This document shows, in pieces, positions 2,700 through 35,340 of a DNA stretch of 64,000 bases (its first letter is position 1; each line of letters begins with the position of its first letter). The stretch lies in the IMG/VR virus record IMGVR_UViG_3300049912_000012, positions 14,890 to 78,889 of that record. One strand, written 5' to 3'. A program made the translations under genes and the position numbers. The notes below the pieces were generated by a model that saw only the letters and a program-made list of their open reading frames with translations, did no database searches and was not told where the DNA came from. The DNA comes from a virus.

Positions 2700-2933
2700 T
2701 TATGTACGGTTTGCACTCTTAAATGTTATCTTAAATCCACACTCATAACAATTATATTTATATAGATTAGCCCTTGAATTGGTAAGATATTTCATTTCGT
2801 TCCAATCTAATGCTAACCTATCTATGCAATGCCTGCAATATACTACATCACTAACATGAATACCTCCCACAACCTTATTAACCCCCGTTGGAGTAAGTGT
2901 AGGAAATGTAGAATATATAACTGCTGATCCCAT
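2700..2933 (-). CDS. Small Zn-ribbon protein
   Basis: CRHC ... CYEC cysteine pairs. Confidence 0.45.
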   Translation of the reverse strand: MGSAVIYSTFPTLTPTGVNKVVGGIHVSDVVYCRHCIDRLALDWNEMKYLTNSRANLYKYNCYECGFKITFKSANRT

Positions 2934-3883
2934 TATTTCTTATAATATTTCGTAAGTTCCTCAACATGAGGTAAATAGATGCAACGACATCTCGTATGAA
3001 AAGGTAGCATCCCGCTTGCCTCATCTAACGTATATACCTTACCCTCATACGGTTTGCAAAGTTCACAAACTCGATCATCTCCTGCGGTCTTTATTTCCGC
3101 TAAAACATTCACGCCCTCTACTCCCCAATTACGAAATTCTTGAAGCTGCGCCTCATTGAAACTTCGCATTATTTCGGTTCTCGCAAGCATCTCTGCACGT
3201 ACCTGTGCAGGAATAAATCTTCCTAAAGTATCCGTTATCCCCAAATCTCCCATCCCTGTCCCGTTAATTGTCGCAACAAGTTTCCTCGCAAGGAGCAACA
3301 TCCCATCCCCATCAGCAATACCCTGTGCAAGAACTCTTGCTATCTGCATATCCATAGCTGCAGTGATGCCTTTTAGATCGTTGAAAGTCCTTGTAAAAAG
3401 GAGTCCAAGTCTCTCTAAATGAAAAATATTTCTTGACCAAATATCCACTCCCCCTGACTGATCCATAGTAGGAATGTCCATCCCTGCCTTTACCATCTCG
3501 CTTCTTGCTCGCATCAGTCCTCTCTTGTAACTATCTGCTATATATAGGTTAGTCCATGCTGACTCTATACTCTTTCCTACCTGTTGAAAAGTAGTGACTT
3601 CTAAGATTCCTTTATCTACCTGTATCTGTAACCACTTCATGAACTCCACTACTTTCTCTGCATCACGTCTGAAGATAAATGCTTCCTTACCTGGAGTTGT
3701 CATCTGCAAAGTATGAGTCTTAGGCTTTAATCCAAATACATCTTCCTCTACTACTGCTTTCTTAACTACTGTAACAAGCTCAGTAAACCTACGATTCATA
3801 TTACGAGAGAAAACATTTCTTAACGTTGTCGTCATCGAAGGGTCAACTTGAATTGCTTGTCTATATGTTACTAACTCACTCAA
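2933..3883 (-). CDS. Head morphogenesis protein (SPP1 gp7 / Mu F family)
   Basis: RAEMLARTE, DDRVCELC and PFHTRCRC motifs; directly after portal. Confidence 0.9.
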   Translation of the reverse strand: MSELVTYRQAIQVDPSMTTTLRNVFSRNMNRRFTELVTVVKKAVVEEDVFGLKPKTHTLQMTTPGKEAFIFRRDAEKVVEFMKWLQIQVDKGILEVTTFQQVGKSIESAWTNLYIADSYKRGLMRARSEMVKAGMDIPTMDQSGGVDIWSRNIFHLERLGLLFTRTFNDLKGITAAMDMQIARVLAQGIADGDGMLLLARKLVATINGTGMGDLGITDTLGRFIPAQVRAEMLARTEIMRSFNEAQLQEFRNWGVEGVNVLAEIKTAGDDRVCELCKPYEGKVYTLDEASGMLPFHTRCRCIYLPHVEELTKYYKK

Positions 3884-5322
3884 ACTGCTACTTTCTTTCT
3901 AGGATTCATTTCTAATGCACCTCCTGCTGCCCCCGTTTGTGCAGGAGTGGTAATATCTATAATATCTTCCATTAAACTTTTTTGTTCTTCCGTAATACCT
4001 TCTGCCCTCATTTTTTTAGCAAGGTCAATATCTCCCTGGCTAAATCCAAGACATTTTTCAAGAAATAAATCTGCAGGAATTAATGCTTCTGCAGTAGGAT
4101 TAGTAGTATACTCACGTATAGCATTAGCACGTCCTTTCCCTATCTCTACTCTTTCTTTCTCACTTATTGAGAACAAGTCAAGCCAATCTACCCTGTAATA
4201 TTCTTCAGGTTCTGGAAGTATTTTTAATTCTATCAACCTATCTACAAAAGGTCTTATAATCTTAGGTTCTGCATGGTCTTCTCTCCTGCTTTGCACATAA
4301 GTCTTCCACTCACTTGCATCCTGTGAACTTGCAAGTTCACCCCTCTCACTACCTGTCAATACCCTTATAGGGATGCCTGTCACCGCACTTATCATCTGGA
4401 GTTGTGCTTGCACATGGTTGAGTGGATCGGCTATCTGTTGTGCTAATGCTTCCAAATCTACCCCCTCAGTAACTAAGAATCTTAATAAATTATCATCATA
4501 TTCTTGGAATTGATCCTTTAATCCTTCCTTAGTTTCAGTAGTCATAGAATAATCTTTATCAACTTTCCCATGAAATCCAGGTCTAGCACCTCTCCAAAAC
4601 ATCTCTGCATCACCTCCTACTAACTTCTCTAAGTCCATCAACCTGTTAAATACTGATTCAAGTCTTGGAGTACCATAAACTTCTGATTCAAGATTGTCGT
4701 CTACTATATGAACTACTCTTGAATGATGCACCTTTACTATCTTACTTGATCCACTTGATACATCAGCAACCTGTATATCATATATCTTAGGCATTCCATA
4801 ACGAGGATTATTAGGATCGGATTCAAATAGGTTTACCAAGGCACTATTTTCTCCAAAGGGTTTTACATATTGAAGTTTCCTTGCTCCTGTTGTTACAGGT
4901 TTTAAATAATCTTCTATATTAGTTACATCATCTAATCCTAAAAGCAATGCTCCATACCTACCTATCCCTGTAAGCCTATCTACCCTAGCCAAAAGTGATC
5001 TTAGTTTTAATTTTCGATTGAGATCATACCATGCCTTTTCAAAAATAGTCTTGTTAGCCTCTTCTGATTCTATAAGTTCCAATTCTCCCTGCCATGTAGC
5101 TTTTACAGGACGATCTATGATAGCTTTTGCAATATCTTGGCGCACATAACGAGCTTCAAAATCTTTATATGTAAGGATAAGGCTATATCCCAATGCTTTA
5201 TACAAATCCCTGTCCCCTCCATATTGAAGTCCTAGGTATGCAGCAAGATTAGCCCTTGCTACCAATGACCCTGTAAGAGTCTGTATATTCTTGCCATTGA
5301 TAGGCTTAGTACCTCTTTCCAT
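3880..5322 (-). CDS. Portal protein (DUF1073-like)
   Basis: 480 aa; IAKAIIDRP, VHHSRV, YGTPRLE, GIPIRVLTGSERGELAS motifs; upstream of gp7-like gene. Confidence 0.85.
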   Translation of the reverse strand: MERGTKPINGKNIQTLTGSLVARANLAAYLGLQYGGDRDLYKALGYSLILTYKDFEARYVRQDIAKAIIDRPVKATWQGELELIESEEANKTIFEKAWYDLNRKLKLRSLLARVDRLTGIGRYGALLLGLDDVTNIEDYLKPVTTGARKLQYVKPFGENSALVNLFESDPNNPRYGMPKIYDIQVADVSSGSSKIVKVHHSRVVHIVDDNLESEVYGTPRLESVFNRLMDLEKLVGGDAEMFWRGARPGFHGKVDKDYSMTTETKEGLKDQFQEYDDNLLRFLVTEGVDLEALAQQIADPLNHVQAQLQMISAVTGIPIRVLTGSERGELASSQDASEWKTYVQSRREDHAEPKIIRPFVDRLIELKILPEPEEYYRVDWLDLFSISEKERVEIGKGRANAIREYTTNPTAEALIPADLFLEKCLGFSQGDIDLAKKMRAEGITEEQKSLMEDIIDITTPAQTGAAGGALEMNPRKKVAV

Positions 5323-5801: not shown

Positions 5802-6893
5802 TTAAAAAAGTCCATATTTTGCATTCAAATAATTCACAATAGATGTTTGTGTTCCATCATTATCTGCAACATTTCTATATATTATTTCCTTAAATGCTAT
5901 ATTTGCACAACCAAGATTAGCAGCTCTTGAACCTATCGAAATACCCGCTCCCGCTGCCGTACCAACACTGCCAGTGGTTTTTGATGTATTATTAATCTGT
6001 AAAAAACTTGCAGCACCAGACCATAATATTCTGACTAATCCGTATGAGCCAACAGCTAAATTTGAATTTACACTACTATATGCCGTACCACCATAAATAG
6101 CTAAACCAGGAGAAGCAGTCCTTTGTTGTAAAATAAGGGTTGAATCAGTATATCCATCTAAGACAAAATCAGTTGAAGTCCAGCTGACTTGTTTCATGAC
6201 TATATAAGCCATAACTGGTTGATTTAAAGTAAATGTACCCGTTTTTAACTGATCACCATTTGTTGCAGCCCCGTCAAATGTAATTCCATCAGCAGACCAT
6301 ACAGGTTGTTTTAGACCCGTTGCCTGTACTAAGTCATGACCACTTAATAATTTATCTAGCCATGAAGATACAAGATTACTTCCATCTTTGGTTATAGTTG
6401 TAAGATCATTCCAATCATACCAACCTACAGTATTTCCAGCTCTGATTATAATTTCGCCTGCGGACCACGTTGTTGCACTTACAACAGATGACCCAGAACT
6501 CTCACTTGTACCCTTATATGCCGTGACATAAAAATAATATAGTGTCCCTGCTGTTAAACTAGTTGCATTAAATGTAGTGGTTGCACTCGTACCTTTTTCA
6601 ATGAATGAAATATTATCTGTCGAAATATAGATTCTATAACCATCCTGATTTGTTGATGTTGAACTGAATGATAAGTTTATCTGAACATCACTTATAACTG
6701 ATAATACAACACTAGAAGGCAATCCATTTATAGCAGCTATACTTCCCAACACTTTATCAATACATTTCCAGTCAGTATTCTCTGCCCCTGCAAATCCAGT
6801 AACAGTAAGAACGATATCAGTGACATAATACCCATCTCTTACCCCGTTGCGAAACTTATCGGAACCTTGCTTGTATATATAATATTGAGGCAT
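5802..6893 (-). CDS. Modular fibre/decoration protein: N-terminal GFxGxExxDW module + FN3 + LamG/ConA-like domain
   Basis: TGFAGAENTDW; FN3 signature LTAGTLYYFYVTAY; C-terminal YLNAKYGLF shared with 14610..16541. Confidence 0.65.
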   Translation of the reverse strand: MPQYYIYKQGSDKFRNGVRDGYYVTDIVLTVTGFAGAENTDWKCIDKVLGSIAAINGLPSSVVLSVISDVQINLSFSSTSTNQDGYRIYISTDNISFIEKGTSATTTFNATSLTAGTLYYFYVTAYKGTSESSGSSVVSATTWSAGEIIIRAGNTVGWYDWNDLTTITKDGSNLVSSWLDKLLSGHDLVQATGLKQPVWSADGITFDGAATNGDQLKTGTFTLNQPVMAYIVMKQVSWTSTDFVLDGYTDSTLILQQRTASPGLAIYGGTAYSSVNSNLAVGSYGLVRILWSGAASFLQINNTSKTTGSVGTAAGAGISIGSRAANLGCANIAFKEIIYRNVADNDGTQTSIVNYLNAKYGLF

Positions 6894-6895
6894 AA

Positions 6896-7735
6896 TTACT
6901 GTATTTTAAACCACTTCTGTTTGCCAGTAGGTCTTATATACTTGCATACATATAATGAACTATCTGAAGTTTTAAATACGAGAGTTCCATATTTTGCAGC
7001 AACAGTTGTATCACCAACATACATTATCGCTGGAACATTAAGAGTCATTGCAGATGAGTCAATCTTAACTATGCTTGTGCCAATCTTACTATTCAAATTC
7101 AAAGCTGGCGATCCTGTATATGAATACGAAAGATTGAAACTTGAACTATCGGAAGCCTGTGCAAATGTATCTCTGCGTTTATTTACAGTACTCTGTACGA
7201 AATTAAAGGCATTCAGATTAGTTGTAGTGCTTGATATGACAGATAGCTTTGTAAGAGGCGTTGCAGTACCTACTCCAAATCCTATTGAGTCAGCACGAAA
7301 CAATACATTACCCTGTTTATCAGTCATTGTAAGTAGTGGAGAGCCGGTATAAGTGTACCATAAATTCAATGATGAACTATCCCTTGCCTGGGTGGTAGTG
7401 GTCCTGTTTTTATTAGTAGTACTGTTAACGAAATTAAAGCTATTTAAGCCATTTGTCGTTGACGATGATACTACAAACTGGTGTAATGGAGAAGTTGACC
7501 CTATGCCTACATATGACGTTCCTGACGTAAGCAAATTACCACCTGACAATGTAAGTGTGTTGCTTGTATGAGTAAGTAATAAGTCTCCATTATTCCAATT
7601 AATTATTCCTCCTGATCCATATAAATGTAATAACGGAACAGATTTACGAATTATCAAATCATAGTATTTTGTTTTCTGTGCCGACAAAGTTATTGTCAGT
7701 ACAAACATAATTAAACCCAAGAGTGTTTTTTTCAT
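6896..7735 (-). CDS. Signal-peptide-bearing fibre-like protein with an internal ~50-aa duplication
   Basis: MKKTLLGLIMFVLTITLSA-Q signal peptide; VGIGSTSP and FGVGTATP fibre repeats. Confidence 0.6.
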   Translation of the reverse strand: MKKTLLGLIMFVLTITLSAQKTKYYDLIIRKSVPLLHLYGSGGIINWNNGDLLLTHTSNTLTLSGGNLLTSGTSYVGIGSTSPLHQFVVSSSTTNGLNSFNFVNSTTNKNRTTTTQARDSSSLNLWYTYTGSPLLTMTDKQGNVLFRADSIGFGVGTATPLTKLSVISSTTTNLNAFNFVQSTVNKRRDTFAQASDSSSFNLSYSYTGSPALNLNSKIGTSIVKIDSSAMTLNVPAIMYVGDTTVAAKYGTLVFKTSDSSLYVCKYIRPTGKQKWFKIQ

Positions 7736-7736
7736 A

Positions 7737-7895
7737 TTATTGCGGTGTTAGTGTTTCTAAATTTCCCCATGTAAAATCTTCTAACCCAGAAAATCCATCA
7801 ACTTCCCATTCATTATCTATGACAAATTCGGAACCAATAGCTCCTTCTCTAAAATTTAATCCTGTATCTGGATCAGTATATATTAAATATTGCAT
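7737..7895 (-). CDS. 52-aa stand-alone GFxGxExxxW module (not in ORF track)
   Basis: MQYLIYTDPDTGLNFREGAIGSEFVIDNEWEVDGFSGLEDFTWGNLETLTPQ; fills the gap between genes and is homologous to the N-termini of 5802..6893 and 9050..10732. Confidence 0.75.
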   Translation of the reverse strand: MQYLIYTDPDTGLNFREGAIGSEFVIDNEWEVDGFSGLEDFTWGNLETLTPQ

Positions 7896-7905
7896 ATCAT
7901 TATTT

Positions 7906-9048
7906 TTAAGCTCCTATTAATTGCCATGACGAACTACCGGGGAGTCCATGTGTTGGTTTAACATTAGATACTGGAAATACCCTTGCTAATAAATACTTTC
8001 CAGCTAATGACGAATTTATAGTGTAAGTCGTTCCACTATTAGTTATAGCTACCAATACTTCACCATCTCCACTATTGTTAGCTGCAGAATACCATTCTAC
8101 TCTTGTACCATGCCCATTTTCTAATTTGTATGTATCTGTTTTCTGAGTTAAATTTTCCGAACTCCCAGTAAATGTATAAGAACATCCAACAGGTAACCCC
8201 TGCGTAATTGTACCAGTAATAGTTACATTTGAAACAGATGGTCTTGTCCCACCATAAAAATATTCATAAAGAAACCCGGCAATAATTTCACCCTTATTGA
8301 TTTCTGCCATAGTAGTCGGATGTAAATTTGTTGGATGTCTATCCAAGTCATTATAATCATAGGTATAAAATAAATTTGAAGATACTGCCGCAACTCCATC
8401 TCTACAAGCACCCGTGGTGGTATCAAAATTTCTATTCTTGCCAAAATAAAACATTATAGTATTATCATCTAAAACAGTTCTTATTTCATTTATTATATCT
8501 TCAATCTCATCAGTATAATCCTGAGCTACTGTACTACCTGGATAAACACCGCCACTGCCCCAGATAACTGTTATTCTCGGTTCATAACCAATTGCTCTTA
8601 GATATTTCCTCATTAAAAGAGTTTCATCAATTATATCATTAGTCAAAGAAGCCACTGCATTAATACCCCATGTTCCCATTGCTGTTTCCGTAGATATAAG
8701 AGATGATCCATTTTGCGCTAATTGCATGACGAACATAGGTACTGGCCATGAATAATTATGGTATAATATCTTTCCAAAAATATCAACACTATTGAAATGA
8801 TTTTCAGCAGATTCATAATTGTATGCTTTGTTCATATATGCCCAAAATCCTCCGCCAGTCCTTCTTAAATGCGTTTGATCTCCATCTGGAAAATAATAAT
8901 TTTTTAATGTTGTACTGAGAGCGTTATCGTCTATAGTTGATAAATATCCATTCATCAATGAATTACCCAATACTAAAAAGAAATCACATATATTCTTTGT
9001 AGGTACAACACAATTAAATCTTGTTTCTGCTGTTGATGCCTGTCCCAT
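7906..9048 (-). CDS. SGNH / sialate-O-acetylesterase-like domain + Ig-like domain
   Basis: FLVLGNSLMNG (GxS block I), LAQNGSSL, DRHPTNLHP (late His); C-terminal Ig-like repeat. Confidence 0.5.
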   Translation of the reverse strand: MGQASTAETRFNCVVPTKNICDFFLVLGNSLMNGYLSTIDDNALSTTLKNYYFPDGDQTHLRRTGGGFWAYMNKAYNYESAENHFNSVDIFGKILYHNYSWPVPMFVMQLAQNGSSLISTETAMGTWGINAVASLTNDIIDETLLMRKYLRAIGYEPRITVIWGSGGVYPGSTVAQDYTDEIEDIINEIRTVLDDNTIMFYFGKNRNFDTTTGACRDGVAAVSSNLFYTYDYNDLDRHPTNLHPTTMAEINKGEIIAGFLYEYFYGGTRPSVSNVTITGTITQGLPVGCSYTFTGSSENLTQKTDTYKLENGHGTRVEWYSAANNSGDGEVLVAITNSGTTYTINSSLAGKYLLARVFPVSNVKPTHGLPGSSSWQLIGA

Positions 9049-9049
9049 G

Positions 9050-10732
9050 TTAAGTTAAATTTATTTTATAAACCCTAATTGCCGTAATTCCCGTAATAAC
9101 AGTGCCAGATGTTCTAAGAGAAGCAAATATATGATTCTCATGTCCTGCCTGGGCATGAGTCGTAATAAAATCTCTTGTTAGTTGTGAAGGATGCCATAAC
9201 CCATAATAACCTCCACCGGCATCTACATAATGATCTTCTGATTGTATGGATACTTTCCAATATGTAGAATTGCTTTTATCAAAAATTGCCTTGATTGTAG
9301 CATCAGATATTCCGCTAAAGTTTAAATATGAATTTGTCATATTATGAATACAAGAACTAATGCCATATTCAACATCATCCATGTGATCAGCTACTCCCTT
9401 TGTTCCATCCGGTTTATGTGGAATATCATAACATCCTCTTCTTGTAAACCCATTAATTAGCTGGAACCTACCCCATTCAAAATTTGAATATTCAGTATAA
9501 TCATCATTACATATCTGGTTATCTAACCTGGGATTTGTAGTAGAACCTATCCACCCTAAAGTACCATCAATTCCATTATGAAAATATCTAAAATAGTTTA
9601 CATCACCATCCCATGTATTAAATATTTCTGGTTGTGTTGCAGGAAAAGTTAATGTATTTATAATAGCTGCTACATCTGCATCAGAAAGATAACTATTCCA
9701 ATGAGCAAATAATGAATACCTGGTAAAATGTACAGTTTTTGAATAAGGATTATATAATTGCGGGATGCCAGTCTGACTATCAGGAGTTGATGCACTTGTA
9801 GCTGTGGCAACTGAAGCAGAGTCACCCATTTTATATATTTGATATTTCCCATTGACGCCTCCACTCTCGTGACGGGATACAATAGCATACCAATTTGTTG
9901 TAAAATTAGTTGGATCAGGAACAACTTTACCGGGAGAAGCAAGCATTGTTGAACCAACGTAAAATCTTACATAATGAGTGCCTGCATAAAAAATAAATCC
10001 ATTTGTTGCTCCACCAAAAGGTTTGTAAGTAAATATTGGTTCAAAATCAGCATCAAAAATTGGTTGTATTATAATTATAGATGTAAATGATCCTCCAGTA
10101 TATGCTATACTTTTATTAGGCAAAGTTAATGGAGCTGTAAGCGCTGTTGATCCTGCTAATGTATTTAAAACAGGAAAATGACTTATTGTTATATTTTCTA
10201 AATTGATACTATCAGTAATAACCAATCCATTTCTAGTATCAAACAAAGCATCTTCATCAGGTACTATACTTACACATTCTGAAACAACATCAGAATATGC
10301 ACTATATCTAATTCCTATTAATGCACGAAGTTTATAGTAATATGTGATTTCTAATTCAATATCTTCATCAGTATATGTTTCAGTTCCTTGATCAATAGCA
10401 ACCAGTTCGGTAAAATTGATGTTATCTTCTGATCTTTCAATACTCACCGCATAATCTGATGACCAATTAATAAAGATTTTTTCAGTATCTTTTGTTAATG
10501 TTATGTCTTGTGGAATTTCAGGATAAGAAAGTTTATCAACATTTTCCCAATCCAAATTTTCACTACCAGCAAATCCAGTTACTGTCAATGCTACATCAAG
10601 AACGATATATCCATCCCTTATACCTTTACGCCACAATACTCCTGTCTCACTTTCAAAGATGCGATATTGAGGTTCGGAAGAATTAATTCCGGTCCCCGAT
10701 CTCTTACCTATCCAAATTCCTGTTCCTATCAT
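9050..10732 (-). CDS. Modular fibre/decoration protein: IGTGIWIG leader + GFxGxExxDW module + FN3 + LamG-like
   Basis: Likely true start MIGTGIWIGKR at 10732 (ATGA overlap with upstream stop); TYYYKLRA FN3 motif; YLSDADVAAI LamG-type helix. Confidence 0.65.
   Translation of the reverse strand: MIGTGIWIGKRSGTGINSSEPQYRIFESETGVLWRKGIRDGYIVLDVALTVTGFAGSENLDWENVDKLSYPEIPQDITLTKDTEKIFINWSSDYAVSIERSEDNINFTELVAIDQGTETYTDEDIELEITYYYKLRALIGIRYSAYSDVVSECVSIVPDEDALFDTRNGLVITDSINLENITISHFPVLNTLAGSTALTAPLTLPNKSIAYTGGSFTSIIIIQPIFDADFEPIFTYKPFGGATNGFIFYAGTHYVRFYVGSTMLASPGKVVPDPTNFTTNWYAIVSRHESGGVNGKYQIYKMGDSASVATATSASTPDSQTGIPQLYNPYSKTVHFTRYSLFAHWNSYLSDADVAAIINTLTFPATQPEIFNTWDGDVNYFRYFHNGIDGTLGWIGSTTNPRLDNQICNDDYTEYSNFEWGRFQLINGFTRRGCYDIPHKPDGTKGVADHMDDVEYGISSCIHNMTNSYLNFSGISDATIKAIFDKSNSTYWKVSIQSEDHYVDAGGGYYGLWHPSQLTRDFITTHAQAGHENHIFASLRTSGTVITGITAIRVYKINLT
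10702..10728. repeat. 27-nt perfect direct repeat, copy 2
   Basis: Identical to 5759-5785; encodes the IGTGIWIGK leader. Confidence 0.9.
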
Positions 10733-11232
10733 AAATTTGAGATATAAGCAACCCACCAGTGATCGTGTGCGTATTTAATCGCAAAGTATAAAGCGATAGC
10801 GGTAACAATCGCTGTGATAACAAGTCTTAAATAGATAATAGGTTTTTTAGTCCTGTGATCTATTCTTTGAACAGTAATATACAAATCTTCATATTTGTCT
10901 GACATAATCTTTGCTTGTTGCCGGATACCTGTTACATCTTCCCGGAGGTGAGATAATTCAACACGGAATGACTTCATAAGCTCTGTCTGTTCATCCATCT
11001 TGTCGAACATCTTCCTATCCCTTGTCAGTAGTGCTTCAGCCAGTTCATTCTTGATTCGATTCACTTCATCAGTGATATGCTTCTTAATATACTTCTTGAC
11101 TTTCTCATTATTATATTCTAAAGCACGTTTAAAGAATTGGCGATCATCGCTGCTCCATGTCTGCCCGGAAACTGACAACTCGCTAACGGGAACATTTTCA
11201 AGTTTTACCTCTGTTATCTTTTCTTTTACCAC
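10729..11232 (-). CDS. Coiled-coil protein with C-terminal TM helix
   Basis: Heptad-like middle; hydrophobic LVITAIVTAIALYFAI near the C-terminus. Confidence 0.55.
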   Translation of the reverse strand: MVKEKITEVKLENVPVSELSVSGQTWSSDDRQFFKRALEYNNEKVKKYIKKHITDEVNRIKNELAEALLTRDRKMFDKMDEQTELMKSFRVELSHLREDVTGIRQQAKIMSDKYEDLYITVQRIDHRTKKPIIYLRLVITAIVTAIALYFAIKYAHDHWWVAYISNL

Positions 11233-11328
11233 TCCTGTTTATCTTAATAGATTGTATAATAATTACCGCCAGTGCGCCAGCAATGGCAGTGCAGAACACT
11301 ATTGCAAATATTTTGAAAATCAAATCAC

Positions 11329-11721
11329 TCATTTCTTTACTGGTATTATCCTTGTTCTTACTTCTGGAAATTTCATTGAATCAACTTGTCTTTCATACCT
11401 AGCTTTCGATTCATAATACTTAATCACCTCATCCAGCCTATTAATAATTGTTAAAGTATTAACATGACTCCTTTCAAGAGCTTTAAAATTGTTTTCCTGT
11501 TTCTGGGTTGCAATTAAATGTTCATTCAATAAATTTGTGAACTCTGCAAACTGCATTGTTTTCAGTGTATCACTCTTTAATAACAAGTTAACATTCTTTT
11601 CAATCCCTGTAATATTATTTTTATTGCTTTCATCTTTCCTTCCCCAGGTATATAAAGCAGTCCCGGCAGCTATCACGTAGCCGAGGTAAGGTAAAATTGC
11701 TTTAAGGGTGAGTCTTGTCAT
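11329..11721 (-). CDS. N-terminally anchored coiled-coil membrane protein
   Basis: TM ILPYLGYVIAAGTALYTW followed by coiled coil. Confidence 0.55.
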   Translation of the reverse strand: MTRLTLKAILPYLGYVIAAGTALYTWGRKDESNKNNITGIEKNVNLLLKSDTLKTMQFAEFTNLLNEHLIATQKQENNFKALERSHVNTLTIINRLDEVIKYYESKARYERQVDSMKFPEVRTRIIPVKK

Positions 11722-11745
11722 ATCCCCGACCTCTCATTGTATTAT

Positions 11746-14610
11746 TTAATTACCATCCCATCCTGCCATCCTTGCCAACATCCACCATACAGCTTTTGCA
11801 AGTCTTATAGTCCCCGGCATCCCAATATGACCATAATCTTGCGTACCAAGATTTCTCGTAGTTATAACAGGATATGTATGTCCATTCCAAGTAGCGGTAT
11901 TCGGTCCACTGCCGTCATCATCGTAACAAAGAATATCTGCATAATCAAAAAGTATCCTTGTGGAATTACCATCAACATAATTTCTTATTGCCTCATATAA
12001 AAGATATTTATTATAACCCATTTCACCAGTACTATTCCAATAATCAACTGGGCCGGTTGTAAAATATACTTTAGCTGGGATGCTATCTGCACAATAATTA
12101 ATATATGATTGAGTTGCTGCCAGATAATCAGTGGCATCGGTTATATCAGAATCATAACACCAACCAAATCCTATCGCTGTCAAATCTAACCCGTTATGAT
12201 TATTATAAGTTAAATTTGCTTTTGTTCTGCTTATTGCTGTCGAACTGGTAATCCAATCCTCCTCCCCATAACTTGTAAGCCATCCTGTTGCATTATCCAC
12301 ATCACCCCATGTATAACGATCTGCCCTTAAATGTTCTTCTGTATATAATTCAGGGGAAACATACCATGCCGGACCAATATCATAAGCCGGATATGTATCT
12401 TCTAAAGTAACCAATCCAGTTATATAAGCAGTTGAGTGTGACTCTCCGGCTATAACAAATCGCATTTTTTTCACAGCAGTCATATATTCTGAAGGAATAT
12501 CATCAAACCTATCAACAATGGTATGATCTGCTATTATTTGAGAAGTTACAGATTGATTTGAAATAGTAATTTCTTTTTCCCCATAAACAGAAGAACCATC
12601 GTTTGCTGTTGCCCGTACTGTAACAGTTCCATCTGTTAATGCAGTCAATAACCCACTACTATTTATTGAACCTACTCCTGTACCATTTGTCCTTGACCAG
12701 GTGGCAGTAGTATCATCTGCATTTGTGGGTAGAGTCTTTTTAAGCATTTGAAGTGTTCCTCCGTTAACAGAAATCGTAGTTGCCTCTCCTGTTCCAAATA
12801 CAGATATGCTGGTTACTGGTTTAGGTCCTACATAAATACCAGTTCCAGTTGTGGCTATTTTACCGTTTACAAAAACTGGTTTGCCATCTTGAAATATAAA
12901 TAAATCTTTTCTTGTCATAAACTGAATATCATTACCATAACTTGTACCTACTTCATTGGTCGCATATGCTCTAACATGATATATAGTTTCTGAAGTTAAT
13001 CCTGTTATCGCAGAACTAAATATACCAGTTCCTTCTCCGTCAGATGTATGATTACCAGTTATTGACGGATTAAAACTACTCCCCCAACAAACACCCCTTG
13101 CTGAAACCGTCCCCCCGCCATCATCCGTAACATTACCACCACTTGTCACTTTTGTTGTACCGGGATAAACACCAGTAGTTGAAACGACAATAGGATTTAT
13201 TGTTATTTGACCGGAGTAATATTCAGAATAACCAAGATCGGGAGCAGAACCATTAAATGTATAACCTACATCTATCCCCGCATCAATCAAATCAGATGTA
13301 GAAGTAAGTTTTAAAAAAGTAATGTTAGGAAGTGAACCATCTGGTTTTCTTGAAGCAGTTAATTGTTCTATTGCTTCTGTCGAATCAGTAAGAACAAAAT
13401 CAGCATCTGTAACAGTATATGTAGGATTTATTTCACTATAAGGCCATCCTTCCCGTAGTCTGAAATTATTATGATCAAGTGTAAGATATTTTGCAATGTA
13501 AGGTGCTTGATCGCATACGCCAAATAGAGCATAATAAACATCACGATTTATAAATATATTATTTTGAAGAACAGTTCCTCCTTTTCCTGTTACACAATTA
13601 AATTCCTGTGATCCGACAACATAACCATATTCACATTTATAGGCAACATTATTATAATATTCGCATTTAGGGCCATAGAAAGCATCAAAAAGATTTACTT
13701 CACAGTATGCAGTATGATGATTAAAAGCAGCAAGACAATTATTTACCACACGTTTGCCTTTTAGAAATACTCCACTGGTAGCGAATTTGATTCCTGTACC
13801 ATCCCCGGTTAGAAGAAACTGGTATCCGTTATTAAAAAACCAACAATTTGAAAAATGGAATTGCATCGTTGTGCTTGCATCAATTCCATCATCTGAACAT
13901 CTCCATGCTCTGCATCCTGTAATATAAGCTATCTTAAACGTATCAACCGCAGTTCCTCCACTCGTTATATTATATCCGTCACCATCACCCCCGGGAGATG
14001 TTGCATCCAAACTATCACAAACTTCATATACATCAGTATTTGTAAGGTAAAGTGTATCATACCCACCAATTTGTATCCCTGTGCCCCCAATATCGTGAAC
14101 TACTATATTCTCGAAAGATACAACAGAATGAATTGTTGGCCCATGACAAGACATTTCTATACCTGTACAATTTGATCCAATAAGAAGCTGACGAGCATTT
14201 TTAATAGTCAACCCCTTAAACTTTAAGTATGTGGCTTCGTTTATATTTAAGCCGATATTACCTGTATTATCTAAACTCGCAAAAAAACAATCCAGTGTCG
14301 GAGTTTCACCCGAATAATTAAAAAAACAAATAGGATTATCGTGAGTGCCATTATGACCAATACCCTGATCTGGATCAATTTCCGTTATTGCATAGCCGGG
14401 TCTATGATGAGTTATAGGATACCATGTTCCACCTCTGAAATAAACAGTATCTCCCGCCACTGCCGTCTCAAATCCTTTTTGCCATGTTGCCCATGGCTGG
14501 GTTATTGTCCCTAAATTACTATCACTTCCACCTGTCGGTGCAACATAGTAAGTTGCTGCACCAACTGAAAGAGTAAATAAGGAAAGTAATATTATCAGTA
14601 CTTTTTTCAT
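11746..14610 (-). CDS. Secreted right-handed beta-helix (pectate lyase PL9-like) protein with FN3, Big_2 and C-terminal alpha/beta domain
   Basis: Signal peptide MKKVLIILLSLFTLSVGA; YYVAPTGGSDSNLGTITQPWAT, GDGDG, CRAWRCSDDGID, GDGTGIK, PDLGYSEY; FN3 YHVRAYATNEVGTSYG; Big_2 GTVTVRATANDGS. Confidence 0.75.
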   Translation of the reverse strand: MKKVLIILLSLFTLSVGAATYYVAPTGGSDSNLGTITQPWATWQKGFETAVAGDTVYFRGGTWYPITHHRPGYAITEIDPDQGIGHNGTHDNPICFFNYSGETPTLDCFFASLDNTGNIGLNINEATYLKFKGLTIKNARQLLIGSNCTGIEMSCHGPTIHSVVSFENIVVHDIGGTGIQIGGYDTLYLTNTDVYEVCDSLDATSPGGDGDGYNITSGGTAVDTFKIAYITGCRAWRCSDDGIDASTTMQFHFSNCWFFNNGYQFLLTGDGTGIKFATSGVFLKGKRVVNNCLAAFNHHTAYCEVNLFDAFYGPKCEYYNNVAYKCEYGYVVGSQEFNCVTGKGGTVLQNNIFINRDVYYALFGVCDQAPYIAKYLTLDHNNFRLREGWPYSEINPTYTVTDADFVLTDSTEAIEQLTASRKPDGSLPNITFLKLTSTSDLIDAGIDVGYTFNGSAPDLGYSEYYSGQITINPIVVSTTGVYPGTTKVTSGGNVTDDGGGTVSARGVCWGSSFNPSITGNHTSDGEGTGIFSSAITGLTSETIYHVRAYATNEVGTSYGNDIQFMTRKDLFIFQDGKPVFVNGKIATTGTGIYVGPKPVTSISVFGTGEATTISVNGGTLQMLKKTLPTNADDTTATWSRTNGTGVGSINSSGLLTALTDGTVTVRATANDGSSVYGEKEITISNQSVTSQIIADHTIVDRFDDIPSEYMTAVKKMRFVIAGESHSTAYITGLVTLEDTYPAYDIGPAWYVSPELYTEEHLRADRYTWGDVDNATGWLTSYGEEDWITSSTAISRTKANLTYNNHNGLDLTAIGFGWCYDSDITDATDYLAATQSYINYCADSIPAKVYFTTGPVDYWNSTGEMGYNKYLLYEAIRNYVDGNSTRILFDYADILCYDDDGSGPNTATWNGHTYPVITTRNLGTQDYGHIGMPGTIRLAKAVWWMLARMAGWDGN

Positions 14611-16541
14611 TAGTAAATAGAATATTTTGCATTCAGATAATTTATTACAGATGTCTGATTAGGGTCAGTGTCCACAATACCAACTCTGAAGATAACTTCT
14701 TTAATGGACATGCTTGCGGCATCGTCATTATGACTACCAATCCTGAGAATAGAATATCCACTCTCAGTACCAAGTGTACCAGTTACAGCAGTATTGGCAT
14801 TTATCTGAATCTTTGATCCATTAGAAACATCATTATTATGAACATTCCTAATAATATAATATGTATCATCCGTCCAATAACTATCTGATGTTGAAAATGC
14901 TTCTCCTCCTCCCATCAATGTAAGCCCATGAAGTGATCCGGTTCTTATATTTAAAGTACTGAATCCAAGTCTGTAAAGAGCTTTCCCAGCACCATCAGCA
15001 TGTATGGCAACAACCATATAGATAGTCATTGGAAATGTATAACTGACAGCATCATTTTCAAGATAGTCATTAACACCATCAAAATCAATCTCTAAATTGA
15101 CAGAATCTTTAACAGGTCGGTATGTTGCTGGTGAGATTAAATCCCATCCCGAAGAAGACTGATCTTCCAATTTGTAAATATAACCAAGACTCCTGCTCAT
15201 GTATGTTGCCGATCCATCACCATACATATACCATCCTTTTGTATATGTATCAGATGAAAGAAATGACGGAGGTGTTACCGCTTGATTACTTATAGTGATA
15301 TTCCTATGACCATGTACCGCCGATCCATCATCGGCAGTCGAAGTTACTTCAACAACACCATTTGAAACAGCTGTAAGAAGTCCTCCGGCACTGATAGTCC
15401 CTATATCCTCATCATCTACTGACCATGTATTTGAAGTATCCGCAGCATTAGTTGGTAATGTCTTTTTAAGCATTTGGAGTGTTCCTTCCGACACTGTTAT
15501 AGTTGTTGCCCCTCCAGTACCCCATACAGAAATGCCAGTAACCAATATTGGTAAATTATTGGTAACTGGTTTATTAACCCAAGAATTAACTTTATTTAAC
15601 GTGCTATCTTGTAATCTTTTCTTACCATTCTGAGTAGCATTTGTTGAAGTATAATCCAATAAATATGTAGTGGTGCTTGTTGTGCCAGGATCAGCCAAAA
15701 CTAAGAATAATGAATCATTACTTATAAGTGCAGTATCCAAAACTACATGAGTACCATTTGCTGTAAAATCAAATCCTTCAACCGATGGAATTGAATCCTG
15801 ATGCACATCAGTAGTATCAAAAACGACAACTAAGGTATCATCAGCATAGTCCCCTATCTCTGCACTTAAAAACCTGGGGGGTGCAATATCAAGACCTAAA
15901 TTATTGATATTTTCGATTAGAGTAGCTAAATCATCCTTTATAATTTGCACTTCAGCTATTAAACTGTCTATTTTATAATAAAGATATGTAGTATCATAGA
16001 CATACATTTCTCCAATCTGCTCTCTATATGCGTATGGAATATATGGAGCAAGAGTGTCAGACCCATGATAAATCTTAACATCACTTGCTACTGAAGAAAT
16101 AGAATCAATCTGGACTTTTGCTGAACCTCCAACCTTTAATGCAGGAGTTATCACAATGCCTGTAAACGTTGGTGATACAATATTTGACTTTAAAGGCATC
16201 CTTATATCCATTGTATCATGTATCTGATCAGCTACTTCTGTCTCTGATAGTCCTGCCTCCCCTAATTCAGATGAAAGAGCATAGTGCGATAACATATTGG
16301 CAGTATCCGATACATTTACCTTGCCATTATTATATGGTAGTAAAATAGTTGCGCCATTATAGAACTTTATATCACCCGCTGTTGAACTTATACTATCAAT
16401 CTTGACTTTTGAAGATTTGGTTACATAATTTCCTCCGACTTGTAATCCACCAAAAGCCCTCACTTGGTATTTAAAGTCGTTCTGGGCGAATAGATTAAGT
16501 CCAACAAGCAAAAAACTAACTATTAAATATATCCTCTTCAT
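14610..16541 (-). CDS. Secreted fibre/adhesin-like protein with Big_2 and LamG-like domains
   Basis: Signal peptide MKRIYLIVSFLLVGLNLFA-Q; Big_2 nearly identical to that of 11746..14610; FDGVNDYL LamG motif. Confidence 0.65.
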   Translation of the reverse strand: MKRIYLIVSFLLVGLNLFAQNDFKYQVRAFGGLQVGGNYVTKSSKVKIDSISSTAGDIKFYNGATILLPYNNGKVNVSDTANMLSHYALSSELGEAGLSETEVADQIHDTMDIRMPLKSNIVSPTFTGIVITPALKVGGSAKVQIDSISSVASDVKIYHGSDTLAPYIPYAYREQIGEMYVYDTTYLYYKIDSLIAEVQIIKDDLATLIENINNLGLDIAPPRFLSAEIGDYADDTLVVVFDTTDVHQDSIPSVEGFDFTANGTHVVLDTALISNDSLFLVLADPGTTSTTTYLLDYTSTNATQNGKKRLQDSTLNKVNSWVNKPVTNNLPILVTGISVWGTGGATTITVSEGTLQMLKKTLPTNAADTSNTWSVDDEDIGTISAGGLLTAVSNGVVEVTSTADDGSAVHGHRNITISNQAVTPPSFLSSDTYTKGWYMYGDGSATYMSRSLGYIYKLEDQSSSGWDLISPATYRPVKDSVNLEIDFDGVNDYLENDAVSYTFPMTIYMVVAIHADGAGKALYRLGFSTLNIRTGSLHGLTLMGGGEAFSTSDSYWTDDTYYIIRNVHNNDVSNGSKIQINANTAVTGTLGTESGYSILRIGSHNDDAASMSIKEVIFRVGIVDTDPNQTSVINYLNAKYSIY

Positions 16542-16542
16542 T

Positions 16543-16881
16543 TTATTCTGGTTTTAAACTATATATATTTTCCCAATCCAAATTTTCCATTCCGATAAAT
16601 CCAGTCGGTGTCAGTGTCCTGTCAATATGATATGAAGTGCCAACTATCCTATGCCTGTAAAGATGAGCCAGGTCAATAATAACATTATCTTCCGTCAAGT
16701 CAAGAGTCATCAAAGTATCCCATGTAACACCAGAATCAGCAGAATAGTAAAGAACAAAATAACCACCAGCATTATTAATTTCCCGTTTATACCGGGTCGT
16801 ACCTGATGTCAATATAAAATAAGTTGAAGCCCAACCCACCGACCTCCTGCCTATTCCTATTATATTGCTGATCCCGATCAT
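16543..16881 (-). CDS. Small adaptor: IGxG leader + C-terminal GFxGxExxDW module
   Basis: MIGISNIIGIGRR... TGFIGMENLDWENIY. Confidence 0.55.
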   Translation of the reverse strand: MIGISNIIGIGRRSVGWASTYFILTSGTTRYKREINNAGGYFVLYYSADSGVTWDTLMTLDLTEDNVIIDLAHLYRHRIVGTSYHIDRTLTPTGFIGMENLDWENIYSLKPE

Positions 16882-18545: not shown

Positions 18546-19007
18546 TCATCGAAATAGTATTTTAAATTCATCCTTATTCCTGCAAAAAATAGATTTGAGA
18601 GTGCCGTCACTTACATTCATTTCCTCACCCAGTTGTTTATATGTTAAATCTCTCCAAAAATGTCCAAGGATTATCTTCTTCTTAATATCTGAAAGATGAC
18701 TCCCATTAACAGCATTTAACATATCAGGATAATTCACTTCTTCGTCACTTATATCTAAACCATTTAAATCTGTATATCGTTGCTCTCTCTTTAACTGTGT
18801 TATACAACAATTTTTTACAAGTCTCCGAAGATAATTAATCCTTTGCCCATTGTAAAGTTCATATACATCAGTTCTTGACTCAAGAATCCTTAAAACACAA
18901 TCATGAATAATATCACCTGGGTCTAATCCATAACGAGCAATAGACCTTGTAAATAGTTTACGATTCTCATAAAAATATTCTACTAATTCATTTTTATCTA
19001 GTTTCAT
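18546..19007 (-). CDS. ECF-type sigma-70-like factor
   Basis: Region-2-like DIIHDCVLRI...YLRRLVKNCCI and region-4 HTH LTYKQLGEEMNVSDGTLKS. Confidence 0.75.
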   Translation of the reverse strand: MKLDKNELVEYFYENRKLFTRSIARYGLDPGDIIHDCVLRILESRTDVYELYNGQRINYLRRLVKNCCITQLKREQRYTDLNGLDISDEEVNYPDMLNAVNGSHLSDIKKKIILGHFWRDLTYKQLGEEMNVSDGTLKSIFCRNKDEFKILFR

Positions 19008-19017
19008 GACATTTATA

Positions 19018-20532
19018 TTAAGTTACCCTACGAGCTATCTTCTTATTAGCTAACTTAGTTACAGCAAGAGATGACGCATCAACCTGGTCCTTATATGTGG
19101 AAAACGGAAAATAACGTAATTCATTTATATAATTCAGATTCCAACTTCCCTGTAAAAGTATTACATTACCATTATTAACCTGTACTGAATAAGGATCAGC
19201 ACGATACGTTTTATCTCCCGATGCATGTTCTGAATCTGCTTTAAACCCTAAAAGATTCCTTATTGTACCTTCTGCCGATTCCTTCCCTGAACTACCAGGT
19301 TCTTGTTCTATCCATATTTCCACACCTGTACCATCTGTGTCTGCAACCGACCTGATAATCCTTTCTCTCTCTTGACTTTCCCATTGACCCCGCACAACAT
19401 CTTCAACCAATAACCTGTTATTAATCAATTTACTTATCTTAACCCCTGCTGTATATGCACCACCTCCCTGTGTTCCTGCCTTATCCCATGCACGCACAGT
19501 ATGTAATATCTCATGTTTTTGTGGAAGTGACGTGGTAATAGTAAATTTATCAACCTTGAACATACCTCCACCTGGGGGTGTAGGATTTTGCCCTATCTGC
19601 CCTGCATATCCATACTGTCCTAACTTGGATTCAAGGTCTTTAAGAGTCTTCCATGAAATACGCTTGGTATCCAAGAGATCATCAGTATAAAAATCAACCA
19701 TCTCTTTAGGAGTAACAAATTCCCTAAAGTTGCGTATCTCACCTGGGAGACAGATATGCCTGACATTTTCTTCTTTCTTATCAAGCCAATGACCTGATGG
19801 ATCATTCATATGAAGCCTTTGCATTATTAAAATAACAGGGGTAATATCTTTATCCCTCTTACGAAGTGGAAGTGTTTGTTCCATGAAATGATTAGCATTC
19901 GCCAATTCTATATCTGATGCAGCCTGTGTAGGATTTAACGGGTCATCAACAATAAGTATATCTGCATGAAATCCTGTAACAGTACCGGTAAGAGATGTAC
20001 TGATCCTGCCTCCACCCGTTAAAAGACTCCCCCTCCTATGAGTACCACCTGCACCTGTAACCTTCTTAGCAATCTTAAAATTAGACTTGACGTTCTTATC
20101 TTCCTTTATAATAATGTCAGGGTACATCTCTTGGAATAACTGGCTCTGCAATATATCACGACAATATTCTGCACTTTCCAAGGAAAGTTTATCCGAATAG
20201 GACATTGTTATGATAAGCATCCAATGCCATCGAGTCCAACACCAGATAGGAAACATGATACTAACAAGGGCCGTTTTTGTGCTTCCTGGTGGTACGTTCA
20301 GGATTAAATCATAATCCCTGGGTTCCCTACGTGAAACTTTCTCGGCAACTTTTTCAAGTTCTTTACAGAGATATTCTATATGCCAGTTTGGGGAAAACGG
20401 TTGTGACGAATATACAGGCCAAAAATATTTAAGGAAGTGGTAGAGGGAGCGGTTGTTTAGTTCCCTCGTAATGAGTAGGGGGTTCTTCAAGAGTTCCTTG
20501 ACAATTTCAGGGCTAATTGTCGTCCCCGGCAT
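19018..20532 (-). CDS. terL: Terminase large subunit
   Basis: LNVPPGSTKT Walker A, LIVDDP Walker B, IMQRLH, RAWDKA, EQEPGSSGK, DQVDA nuclease motifs. Confidence 0.95.
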   Translation of the reverse strand: MPGTTISPEIVKELLKNPLLITRELNNRSLYHFLKYFWPVYSSQPFSPNWHIEYLCKELEKVAEKVSRREPRDYDLILNVPPGSTKTALVSIMFPIWCWTRWHWMLIITMSYSDKLSLESAEYCRDILQSQLFQEMYPDIIIKEDKNVKSNFKIAKKVTGAGGTHRRGSLLTGGGRISTSLTGTVTGFHADILIVDDPLNPTQAASDIELANANHFMEQTLPLRKRDKDITPVILIMQRLHMNDPSGHWLDKKEENVRHICLPGEIRNFREFVTPKEMVDFYTDDLLDTKRISWKTLKDLESKLGQYGYAGQIGQNPTPPGGGMFKVDKFTITTSLPQKHEILHTVRAWDKAGTQGGGAYTAGVKISKLINNRLLVEDVVRGQWESQERERIIRSVADTDGTGVEIWIEQEPGSSGKESAEGTIRNLLGFKADSEHASGDKTYRADPYSVQVNNGNVILLQGSWNLNYINELRYFPFSTYKDQVDASSLAVTKLANKKIARRVT

Positions 20533-21055
20533 CTCCAGGTAGTGATATTAATGGTTCAGGTTCTATATCCGTGACATTCCTTAACTTCTTAGCTTCTTTC
20601 TCTAATAATGCCAAGATGTCAGTAGAGATAGTATCTATGTTGATGTTGATGTTTGCCGTGCTTTCTATACTTATCCTCTGTGTCTCTGACCATCCCTGGT
20701 CCCTCGCTTTAAGTGACATCAACCGCATTGCCGTCCAAGGATCAGGAAGTCTTTGCTTCTTGATAGTAGTTTTCTCCCACTTATGAACAGACCTGTCATA
20801 AGTTGCTACCTCTTCTTCATATGGAAAACCTAATGCAAGTTTAAGAATAGACTGTGTAACACCTGTTAAAATTCCCAAGTTACCATCGTCTATTGCCTTC
20901 TTAAATTCTTTATGAGTCTTTTTCCATTGACAGTAGGTAGAATAATGAACATCCATTATCTCAGCCTGTTTTTGCTCTGAAAATCCTGCAGACGTAAGCA
21001 AATAGGCCATTTCAATGTATCTATCTGTCCACTTTACTAACCTTGAAGGTAACAT
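20513..21055 (-). CDS. terS: Terminase small subunit
   Basis: N-terminal HTH (QAEIMDVHYSTYCQWKK), LKLALG..PDPWTA; directly upstream of TerL. Confidence 0.8.
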   Translation of the reverse strand: MLPSRLVKWTDRYIEMAYLLTSAGFSEQKQAEIMDVHYSTYCQWKKTHKEFKKAIDDGNLGILTGVTQSILKLALGFPYEEEVATYDRSVHKWEKTTIKKQRLPDPWTAMRLMSLKARDQGWSETQRISIESTANININIDTISTDILALLEKEAKKLRNVTDIEPEPLISLPGDAGDDN

Positions 21056-34926: not shown

Positions 34927-35340
34927 ATGAAAAAAACAATCTTTATAATTTTATCCTGCTTTGCATGGAATTTGAGTTCTGCACCAGGTCGAGCGGAATT
35001 GTGCATAGTAGAATCAAAAAGCATAAATCCTTATGAAGCCATTTTTAAAGCGATTTGCGAGTATGAAAGTAGAAATGACACCAATGCCTATAATAAGGAA
35101 GAAGATGCCGTAGGCATAGTGCAAATACGTCCTATTCGCATTTTACACTTTAACCAATTATCAGGGAAGAATTATCAACTTTATGAAATGCATGATCCAG
35201 TTAAAAGCAAGGAAGTGTTTATGTATTTCGCACAAAGGTTGCATAATCCTGACCTAGTCATACGAAAATGGAATGGATCAGGACCTAAGACTTACGAATA
35301 TTTAAAGAAAATCCAGGAAATATTAGTTAAATCAAATTAA
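34927..35340 (+). CDS. Secreted lysozyme-like / lytic transglycosylase-like protein
   Basis: Signal peptide; ICEYES catalytic Glu, GIVQI, WNGS. Confidence 0.65.
   Translation: MKKTIFIILSCFAWNLSSAPGRAELCIVESKSINPYEAIFKAICEYESRNDTNAYNKEEDAVGIVQIRPIRILHFNQLSGKNYQLYEMHDPVKSKEVFMYFAQRLHNPDLVIRKWNGSGPKTYEYLKKIQEILVKSN

Follow-up and report, generated by a model that had tools for sequence, protein, structure and literature searches.

Putative Exported and O-Glycosylated Fiber-Like Proteins Encoded by an Uncultured Siphovirus-Like Phage

Introduction

Particles of tailed phages are taken to be built entirely in the cytoplasm of the host cell. The window analyzed here, a stretch of 64,000 nucleotides (bases 14,890–78,889 of the 78,889-bp IMG/VR record IMGVR_UViG_3300049912_000012, rated complete), raises the question of why a phage of this kind would encode fiber-like proteins that begin with signal peptides and, in one case, are densely covered with motifs for O-glycosylation. 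The virus is an uncultured tailed phage of the siphovirus-like type, and its host probably belongs to the phylum Bacteroidota. Three proteins of 279, 954, and 643 amino acids (aa) are concerned, and their genes form part of a tight, overlap-coupled run on the minus strand between the large terminase and portal genes:

14610..16541, minus strand: 643-aa lectin fiber (signal, small beta domain, helical stalk, immunoglobulin-like (Ig-like) domain, Big_2 domain, concanavalin A (ConA)-like lectin domain)
11746..14610, minus strand: 954-aa exported-type enzyme (signal, right-handed beta-helix lyase resembling polysaccharide lyase family 9 (PL9) and PelN at about residues 5–463, FN3-like region, Big_2 domain at 599–674, 265-aa C-terminal domain)
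6896..7735, minus strand: 279-aa all-beta fiber-like protein (signal at residues 1–19, Gln at +1)

A first-pass annotation had proposed that the phage exports these proteins so that the host glycosylates them. The analysis lends this proposal indirect support in the case of the 643-aa protein with its family and weak support in that of the 279-aa protein; for the 954-aa protein, the canonical motif count gives none.

Signal Peptides and Their Conservation

Signal peptides were judged by a sequence heuristic, read directly from the sequence, and by conservation in relatives. The putative signal of the 279-aa protein is MKKTLLGLIMFVLTITLSA, followed by QK (LSA before Gln; residues 1–19), that of the 643-aa protein is MKRIYLIVSFLLVGLNLFA, followed by QN (LFA before Gln; residues 1–19), and that of the 954-aa protein is MKKVLIILLSLFTLSVGA, followed by AT (residues 1–18). 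All three have a basic n-region, an uncharged hydrophobic core (mean Kyte–Doolittle value of 2.8–3.0), and a small residue at position −1. Position +1 is occupied by Gln in the 279- and 643-aa proteins and by Ala in the 954-aa protein. Gln at +1 is a hallmark specific to Bacteroidota substrates of signal peptidase I (SPI) (PMC5837995); it is cyclized to pyroglutamate (PMC5837995, PMC10653852) and stabilizes exported proteins (PMC10653852). The signals of the 279- and 643-aa proteins follow this rule, and cleavage and conversion of the exposed Gln to pyroglutamate are predicted.

Relatives of the 643-aa protein were collected by a HMMER search with residues 21–335 against 1.84 billion representative sequences. 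A signal is present in 90 of the 128 relatives of this N-terminal half; in 73 of these 90, the hydrophobic core is followed by a small residue and then Gln, and 13 of the 90 carry a lipobox. Most of the relatives lacking a signal appear to be truncated gene calls, as their starts fall within repeats or within the signal sequence. A conserved mature N-terminus (QNxFKY...) directly follows the cleavage site. As for the 279-aa protein, all 22 relatives have a signal, and the only invariant columns are Met1 and Gln20 (the latter in 21 of 21 aligned sequences). Sequence features and conservation thus agree with the first-pass annotation, which had described all three proteins as bearing cleavable-type signals, two of them with Gln at +1. 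The C-terminal sorting domain of the type IX secretion system (T9SS), Por_Secre_tail, is absent in the three proteins and in 44 relatives.

O-Glycosylation Motifs

The sequon was defined as D[ST][AILVMT], and expected counts were taken from 20,000 shuffles. The 643-aa protein contains 14 sequons against 4.27 expected (p about 1e-4). Thirteen of them fall in the following part, where 2.16 would be expected and none of the 20,000 shuffles reached 13:

15597..16481, minus strand: sequon-dense part of the 643-aa protein (residues 21–315), 13 sequons among 27 Asp

The earlier hand count for this protein (14 motifs, 13 in the first ~315 residues, on about half of the Asp) is therefore confirmed. For the 954-aa protein, the earlier figure of about six sequons was right as a count (6), whereas no excess accompanies it (4.81 expected, p = 0.35). 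The 279-aa protein has two canonical sequons against 1.18 expected (p = 0.33); with Ser allowed at position 3, the count rises to 6 against 1.5 (p = 0.001), and Ser at this position does occur in glycoproteomes (PMC12871550). The comparison with shuffled sequences thus places the 643-aa protein above expectation, but not the canonical motif of the other two proteins, and the earlier claim was overstated for these two because their canonical counts are at chance. The signal-less neighbors of 363, 380, and 568 aa, for which one or two sequons had been noted, indeed contain 1, 1, and 2, respectively, at or below the expected 2.0, 1.4, and 2.6. The Big_2 domains of the 954- and 643-aa proteins, which are 62% identical, carry DTT/DTS at the same position, as had also been reported.

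Within the 643-aa family, sites 109, 146, 183, 249, and 276 recur in 27–35 of some 40 relatives, the residues varying within the permitted sets. At site 276, DSL, DTV, DTL, DSI, or DTI is found in 35 of 40 relatives, and at site 109, DSL, DSI, DTI, DTT, or DTM is found in 27 of 39. Across all 128 relatives, the ratio of observed to expected motifs is 2.65 after Asp, as compared with 0.63 after Glu, 1.02 after Asn, and 0.97 after Gln. Ser (1.9) is preferred over Thr (1.2) at position 2. The residues overrepresented at position 3 are Ile (2.6), Leu (2.5), Ala (1.6), Val (1.5), and Thr (1.2), and those below expectation are Phe, Tyr, Trp, Gly, Pro, Asn, and Gln. The motif occurs 1497 times in the forward and 593 times in the reversed orientation, a 2.5-fold difference. 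The published Bacteroidota motif demands Asp, for which Glu cannot substitute, slightly favors Ser, ranks the residues of position 3 in the order L, I, V, T, A, S, M, and excludes Gly (PMC12871550). The residue preferences of the 643-aa family match this glycoproteome profile (PMC12871550).

The excess is spread over the family, with a median observed/expected ratio of 2.5 per protein and a ratio above 1.5 in 85% of proteins. Nor is it limited to a single domain: within the same proteins, the ratio is 4.7 for the conserved Ig-like domain and 2.5 for the remaining sequence. In the confident model of this domain of the 643-aa protein, most sites map to loops or to the ends of strands.

The enrichment follows the presence of a signal. 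Signal-bearing relatives have a ratio of 2.96, as compared with 0.71 in ten clearly full-length signal-less tail fiber relatives (Mann–Whitney p = 5e-7). When signal-bearing open reading frames (ORFs) were compared with the other ORFs of the same locus, the ratios were 1.97 vs. 0.78 in this genome and 2.66 vs. 0.55, 4.16 vs. 0.72, and 2.89 vs. 0.79 in the related loci L005, L006, and L007, respectively. In all four loci, therefore, the sequon excess is confined to signal-bearing ORFs (1.97–4.16 vs. 0.55–0.79), which extends the earlier observation to related phage loci. Motifs engineered into exported proteins are glycosylated, nearly fully, across species (PMC12871550), so export into the periplasm of a Bacteroidota host would suffice for modification.

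Domain Architecture of the Three Proteins

The 643-aa protein comprises a predicted coiled coil (residues 184–214), an SWM/Big_5-like Ig-like domain (224–328), a Big_2 domain (347–407), and a ConA-like lectin domain (434–643). The Ig-like domain was modeled with a predicted local distance difference test (pLDDT) value above 90 and resembles domains of the S-layer protein SbsC; outside it, only parts of the lectin domain, which resembles Emp47p and VIP36, were modeled with confidence. Relatives swap the tip for Laminin_G_3, CBM_4_9, or sialidase-N modules, and phage tail fiber repeats are visible by eye in two of them (P0004 and P0008).

The N-terminal part of the 954-aa protein matches Pel9A-like_beta_helix (PF22842) with 59.2 bits at a cut-off of 25.2. 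It also aligns with positions 12–435 of the 437 positions of the NCBIfam PelN model (E = 2e-38), with a score of 132 bits that is far below the equivalog cut-off of 740. The protein is thus a predicted PL9-like polysaccharide lyase, of a type typical of secreted carbohydrate-active enzymes (CAZymes). No solved or catalogued relative was found for its 265-aa C-terminal domain.

As for the 279-aa protein, its AlphaFold2 model is of low confidence and too poor for a structure search; among its relatives, the C-terminal module is swapped. Taken together, a predicted coiled coil, Ig-like domains, a ConA-like lectin tip, and swapped C-termini make up an architecture of the fiber type.

Docking Modules and Neighboring Genes

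A module of about 50 aa (QYxIY...R.G...D..LTVTGFxGxENxDWEN), referred to below as the docking module, opens two signal-less proteins of the same gene run. It is also found in two small ORFs, each located directly upstream of an exported-type gene:

16543..16881, minus strand: 112-aa ORF, C-terminus formed by the docking module (GFxGxExxDW), stop codon one base before the ATG of the 643-aa protein gene (TAA-A-ATG)
7737..7895, minus strand: 52-aa stand-alone docking-module ORF, stop codon one base before the ATG of the 279-aa protein gene (TAA-T-ATG)

Both ORFs lie in the +1 frame relative to the downstream exported gene. The 52-aa ORF is short enough for an automatic gene caller to miss. In the 73%-identical relative L008, the small ORF, its stop codon, and the junction are kept, though the ORF itself has diverged to 51% identity. 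A programmed +1 frameshift fusing the docking ORF to the downstream gene was considered; the frame geometry fits, but no slippery re-pairing site is present (CAA-TAA-T, GAA-TAA-A) and the stop codon is conserved in L008, so such a fusion was judged unlikely. A Sec signal must be N-terminal, and docking modules serving exported proteins must therefore be separate polypeptides. The split between adaptor and exported fiber genes would be the expected arrangement if both products meet later.

Other genes of the run include the following:

5802..6893, minus strand: 363-aa protein without signal (docking module, FN3, ConA-like lectin domain)
9050..10756, minus strand: 568-aa protein without signal (docking module, FN3-like region, C-terminus of no assigned family)
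7906..9048, minus strand: 380-aa protein without signal, weak resemblance to SASA-type carbohydrate esterases (E = 0.006, below cut-off)
10729..11232, minus strand: 167-aa coiled-coil protein with a C-terminal membrane anchor (tblastn E = 1e-11 to L005 4702-5115)
11329..11721, minus strand: 130-aa protein with an N-terminal membrane segment and helical remainder (phrog_3999, no assigned function)

The lectin domain of the 363-aa protein is paralogous to the C-terminus of the 643-aa protein (30% identity, E = 1e-13). The FN3-like region of the 568-aa protein has no Pfam match of its own and is 35% identical to the module–FN3 part of the 363-aa protein. The homologue of the 167-aa protein adjoins the exported gene pair in L005. 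When the small membrane and lysis proteins of the window were compared by tblastn with L005–L007 and Cellulophaga phage phi18:3, only the 167-aa protein matched; the product of L005 4177-4566, beside the exported pair, has the same architecture as the 130-aa protein, with no significant tblastn match.

Distribution and Genome Setting

The scans yielded only two loci from IMG/VR, one from GTDB genomes, and one from JGI metagenomes. The arrangement of a 643-like gene with a 954-like gene directly behind it, each encoding a signal, is also found in L005, L006, and L007, where the pair adjoins genes for lysis and membrane proteins. The exported genes of L006 and L007 are located between a giant unannotated protein (at least 1,575 aa in L006 and 2,735 aa in L007), probably a virion protein, and the lysis genes, i.e., in the usual tail fiber slot. 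In L006, the signal-bearing genes form a series:

L006 4763-13679: four consecutive signal-bearing proteins (158, 1233, 653, and 948 aa), 82 sequons against 19.7 expected

The 1233-aa protein alone accounts for 40 of these sequons. Among 185,579 bacterial and archaeal species genomes, the 643-aa family gave one match, in a phage-like contig; this near absence indicates a phage family and not captured host cargo. Neither the 279-aa protein, nor the N-terminal half of its 643-aa neighbor, nor the L006 fiber yielded a homologue in cultured phages; only the Big_2 domains matched, to T5-like tail tube proteins.

PHROG matches reveal a siphovirus-type gene set in the window:

2933-3883: head-morphogenesis protein
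3880-5322: portal
19018-20532: large terminase
20513-21055: small terminase
53897-54361: endolysin
57501-59930: tape measure
60820-61248: major tail protein

The fiber cluster is headed by a further gene, directly after the large terminase gene:

18546..19007, minus strand: extracytoplasmic function (ECF)-type sigma-factor-like gene (sigma70-ECF E = 6.7e-10, Bacteroidota subfamily model E = 2e-8, both below cut-off)

Given this gene, the fiber cluster may have late regulation of its own. Scans for promoters and terminators and for the Bacteroidota −33/−7 motif were uninformative.

Just outside the window, on its upstream side, the genome carries a cluster of glycan-building genes (about nine or more) that immediately follows the capsid genes:

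L004 1073-9583 (genome bases upstream of the window): two FkbM methyltransferases, one glycosyltransferase of family 2 (GT2), two Gly_transf_sug (DXD) proteins, a nucleotidyltransferase, a GT11 fucosyltransferase, and a weak GT47-like match (below cut-off)

This cluster could glycosylate virion proteins in the cytoplasm, or it could instead re-tailor the lipid-linked O-glycan that ends up on exported proteins.

Comparison with Known Systems

The general O-glycosylation substrates of Bacteroidota share with the window proteins a Sec signal at the N-terminus and soluble regions containing D-S/T-(A/I/L/V/M/T) motifs, with Ser preferred over Thr and L, I, V, A, or T at position 3 (PMC12871550). 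The window proteins differ in being encoded by a virulent-looking tailed phage, in a motif density of about three times chance, and in that their glycosylation is predicted. Phages are not mentioned in the O-glycosylation review (0 occurrences, PMC12871550).

In the cultured Bacteroidota phage phi18:3 of Cellulophaga (NC_021794), the three adjacent large proteins gp085, gp086, and gp087, encoded just upstream of the endolysin (L010 2892-8584), have canonical signals with Gln at +1 and are annotated in the GenBank record as virion or tail proteins on the basis of tandem mass spectrometry (MS/MS). This phage is a podovirus-like member of Pachyviridae, unlike the siphovirus-like window phage. No paper commenting on the phi18:3 signals was found in the literature.

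Prophage proteins of Porphyromonas gingivalis with Gln at +1 are likewise phage-encoded and have SPI signals of the Bacteroidota type, read as an adaptation to host secretion (PMC10367356). They differ in that they are small, belong to temperate phages, have no function assigned, and are discussed as surface modifiers, with no mention of fibers, lectins, lyases, or glycosylation (PMC10367356). The mosaic adhesive trimer (MAT) fibers of Bdellovibrio bacteriovorus are similar in their tail-fiber-like appearance, signal peptide, conserved beta-rich domain directly after the signal, and variable tips (PMC10769870). They are, in contrast, cellular proteins displayed on the predatory bacterium's own surface, with no virion and no sequon enrichment. 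The literature search found nothing on exported or glycosylated tail fibers of Bacteroidota phages.

Receptor-blocking exclusion lipoproteins such as Llp of phage T5 are likewise phage-encoded and exported, with the potential to hide the receptor both on the infected cell and on debris. The likeness is functional only: Llp is a small lipoprotein without fiber, lectin, or enzyme domains, whereas the window proteins are large and have SPI-type signals. None of them is a small lipoprotein with a lipobox Cys, as expected for the Llp/Cor type, and among relatives of the 643-aa protein a lipobox is found only in the 13 noted above.

Discussion

The sequon excess behind a conserved signal is real and statistically robust; the mechanism, i.e., export, cleavage, glycosylation, and virion attachment, is what we infer from it. 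In the proposed mechanism, the 279-, 643-, and 954-aa proteins would be late phage proteins that leave the cytoplasm via the host Sec pathway. Signal peptidase I would remove 18–19 residues and expose an N-terminal Gln in two of the proteins, which Bacteroidota would cyclize to pyroglutamate. In the periplasm, the general O-glycosylation system of the host would modify Ser or Thr in D-S/T-(A/I/L/V/M/T), with the stalk and the Ig-like region of the 643-aa protein as the main targets; the 279-aa protein would probably be glycosylated too, at its D-S-S sites. The 954-aa protein would be an exported PL9-like lyase whose many Cys residues could form disulfides in this compartment. The products would be sugar-binding and sugar-cutting appendages stabilized for life outside the cell.

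The favored last step would take place at lysis. In holin–endolysin–spanin lysis, the cytoplasm and periplasm merge inside a still intact outer membrane once the holin fires, so this is a plausible moment of attachment. When the holin opens the inner membrane, the periplasmic fibers would meet virions built in the cytoplasm and would attach to them through the 52- and 112-aa docking-module proteins encoded just upstream of the 279- and 643-aa protein genes. The evidence leans to such attachment on account of the split docking-module genes and of the signal-bearing virion proteins of phi18:3.

Judged from sequence, export and host O-glycosylation of the signal-bearing proteins are well supported and appear likely. 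Attachment to virions, taken by itself, is a tentative proposal that may or may not hold. The combination of Sec export, glycosylation, and virion attachment as the favored last step is regarded as the best explanation, with moderate confidence.

Several points weigh against this explanation. The canonical sequon counts of the 954- and 279-aa proteins are at chance level. Several sequons occupy structurally conserved positions (e.g., DTTD and QDS-T-GN in the Ig-like domain), and part of the excess could be structural. The proteins gp085–gp087 of phi18:3 have no detectable similarity to the window proteins and contain one sequon each against about three expected; since these MS-detected proteins are below chance, the sequon load is not a general property of exported phage structural proteins. 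The three exported-type proteins have no N-terminal docking module that would serve as a virion-attachment domain, and no outer-membrane export signal, with the T9SS domain looked for, was found in them or in the 44 relatives. The 13 relatives with a lipobox are lipoproteins expected to stay membrane-bound. The assignment of the host to Bacteroidota draws only on the Gln+1 signals, the sequon bias, and the sub-threshold match to a Bacteroidota ECF sigma model. Finally, virions of tailed phages assemble in the cytoplasm, and no paper on fiber attachment after export was found.

The problem of the two compartments does not arise if the proteins are exported and glycosylated but then act as free or membrane-bound late factors in the envelope or lysate, the lectin masking the receptor glycan and the lyase with its C-terminal domain destroying the capsule or receptor. 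Progeny would then not be trapped on debris or matrix, and superinfection would be blocked, as with T5 Llp or a receptor-destroying enzyme. The lipobox variants in 13 of 90 relatives fit a membrane function, the 954-aa protein is of a typical secreted CAZyme type, and the location of the exported pair next to lysis and membrane genes in L005, L006, and L007 agrees with such a role. The lectin domain shared by the 643- and 363-aa proteins also allows for one ligand being bound on the cell and from the virion. We consider this alternative a strong rival, though less likely than the favored explanation. It leaves unexplained why stand-alone docking-module ORFs are conserved and coupled to two of the genes; virion receptor-binding proteins typically swap their C-terminal modules and occupy the tail fiber slot, as seen in L006 and L007 for the latter; and signal-bearing proteins of phi18:3 are found in virions. 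Access to surface receptors before lysis is also doubtful, with no signal for crossing the outer membrane (T9SS domain) found.

Much less probable is that the hydrophobic N-termini do not serve export at all, the D-S/T excess being a structural by-product of beta-rich repeats (SDTAxML, DSLxxxR) in ordinary cytoplasmic virion fibers. Tailed-phage parts are otherwise cytoplasmic, the signals were predicted by a heuristic, and some sequons do lie in repeated or structurally conserved motifs. However, the Gln at +1 is phylum-specific, conserved (invariant as Gln20 in the 279-aa family), and interchangeable with lipoboxes, and both the signal-less tail fiber relatives and the phage's own signal-less fiber-like proteins have ratios at or below 1. 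The depletion of aromatic residues at position 3 and the failure of Glu to replace Asp fit a glycosylation motif and not general strand-capping. Still less probable is host-derived surface-protein cargo ("morons") that alters the surface of a lysogen and is unrelated to lytic development, as proposed for the P. gingivalis prophage proteins with Gln+1 signals, seen as host-surface modifiers (PMC10367356). Against it, the genes are overlap-coupled in a same-strand run between terminase and portal, their G+C content does not depart from that of the remaining genome, the large early ORFs revealed no integrase, and the family is almost absent from bacterial genomes.

A broader version of the preferred explanation would be that phages of Bacteroidota in general route receptor-binding fibers via the periplasm, where they acquire a pyroglutamate cap and an O-glycan coat, and clip them onto virions by split docking adaptors after the holin has merged the compartments, the glycan cluster of the present phage re-tailoring the lipid-linked O-glycan into a phage-specified fiber glycan. 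In this full form, the proposal is speculative and quite unlikely to hold.

The locus thus probably represents a maturation route outside the cytoplasm for phage receptor-binding and depolymerase proteins, one described in no paper found. What is added here is the siphovirus setting, the split docking adaptors, a pair of lectin paralogues of which one is of the exported type, and the presence of a large glycan-building cluster elsewhere in the genome; the two small docking-module proteins paired with exported fibers offer a testable handle. If many Bacteroidota phages mature their host-recognition proteins in the periplasm with host glycans, phage assembly would need a post-holin step, and host genes for secretion, glutaminyl cyclase, and O-glycosylation would influence how fibers function and how antigenic they are. 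Such host factors would be new and would provide new routes to phage resistance. Recombinant fibers and depolymerases produced in E. coli would lack the natural modifications, and the mechanism would also bear on host recognition and persistence of gut and environmental Bacteroidota phages.

Other Features of the Window

Sec or lipoprotein signals were also noted in four more small proteins, two of which have Gln after the predicted cleavage site; all four contain few Asp and zero sequons:

34927-35340, plus strand
49608-50162, plus strand
51732-51953, plus strand
52382-52831, minus strand

The proteins encoded at 34927-35340, 49608-50162, and 52382-52831, the three that were searched, gave no PHROG matches.

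In addition, a gene for a caspase-domain protein is located inside the lysis cassette, between the endolysin gene and that of a 73-aa membrane protein:

53064-53885, minus strand: 273-aa caspase-domain protein without signal peptide (Peptidase_C14, E = 1.4e-20)

Clan-CD proteases process lipoprotein pilins in Bacteroidota, and a role of the 273-aa protein in the release or processing of envelope proteins at lysis is therefore conceivable.

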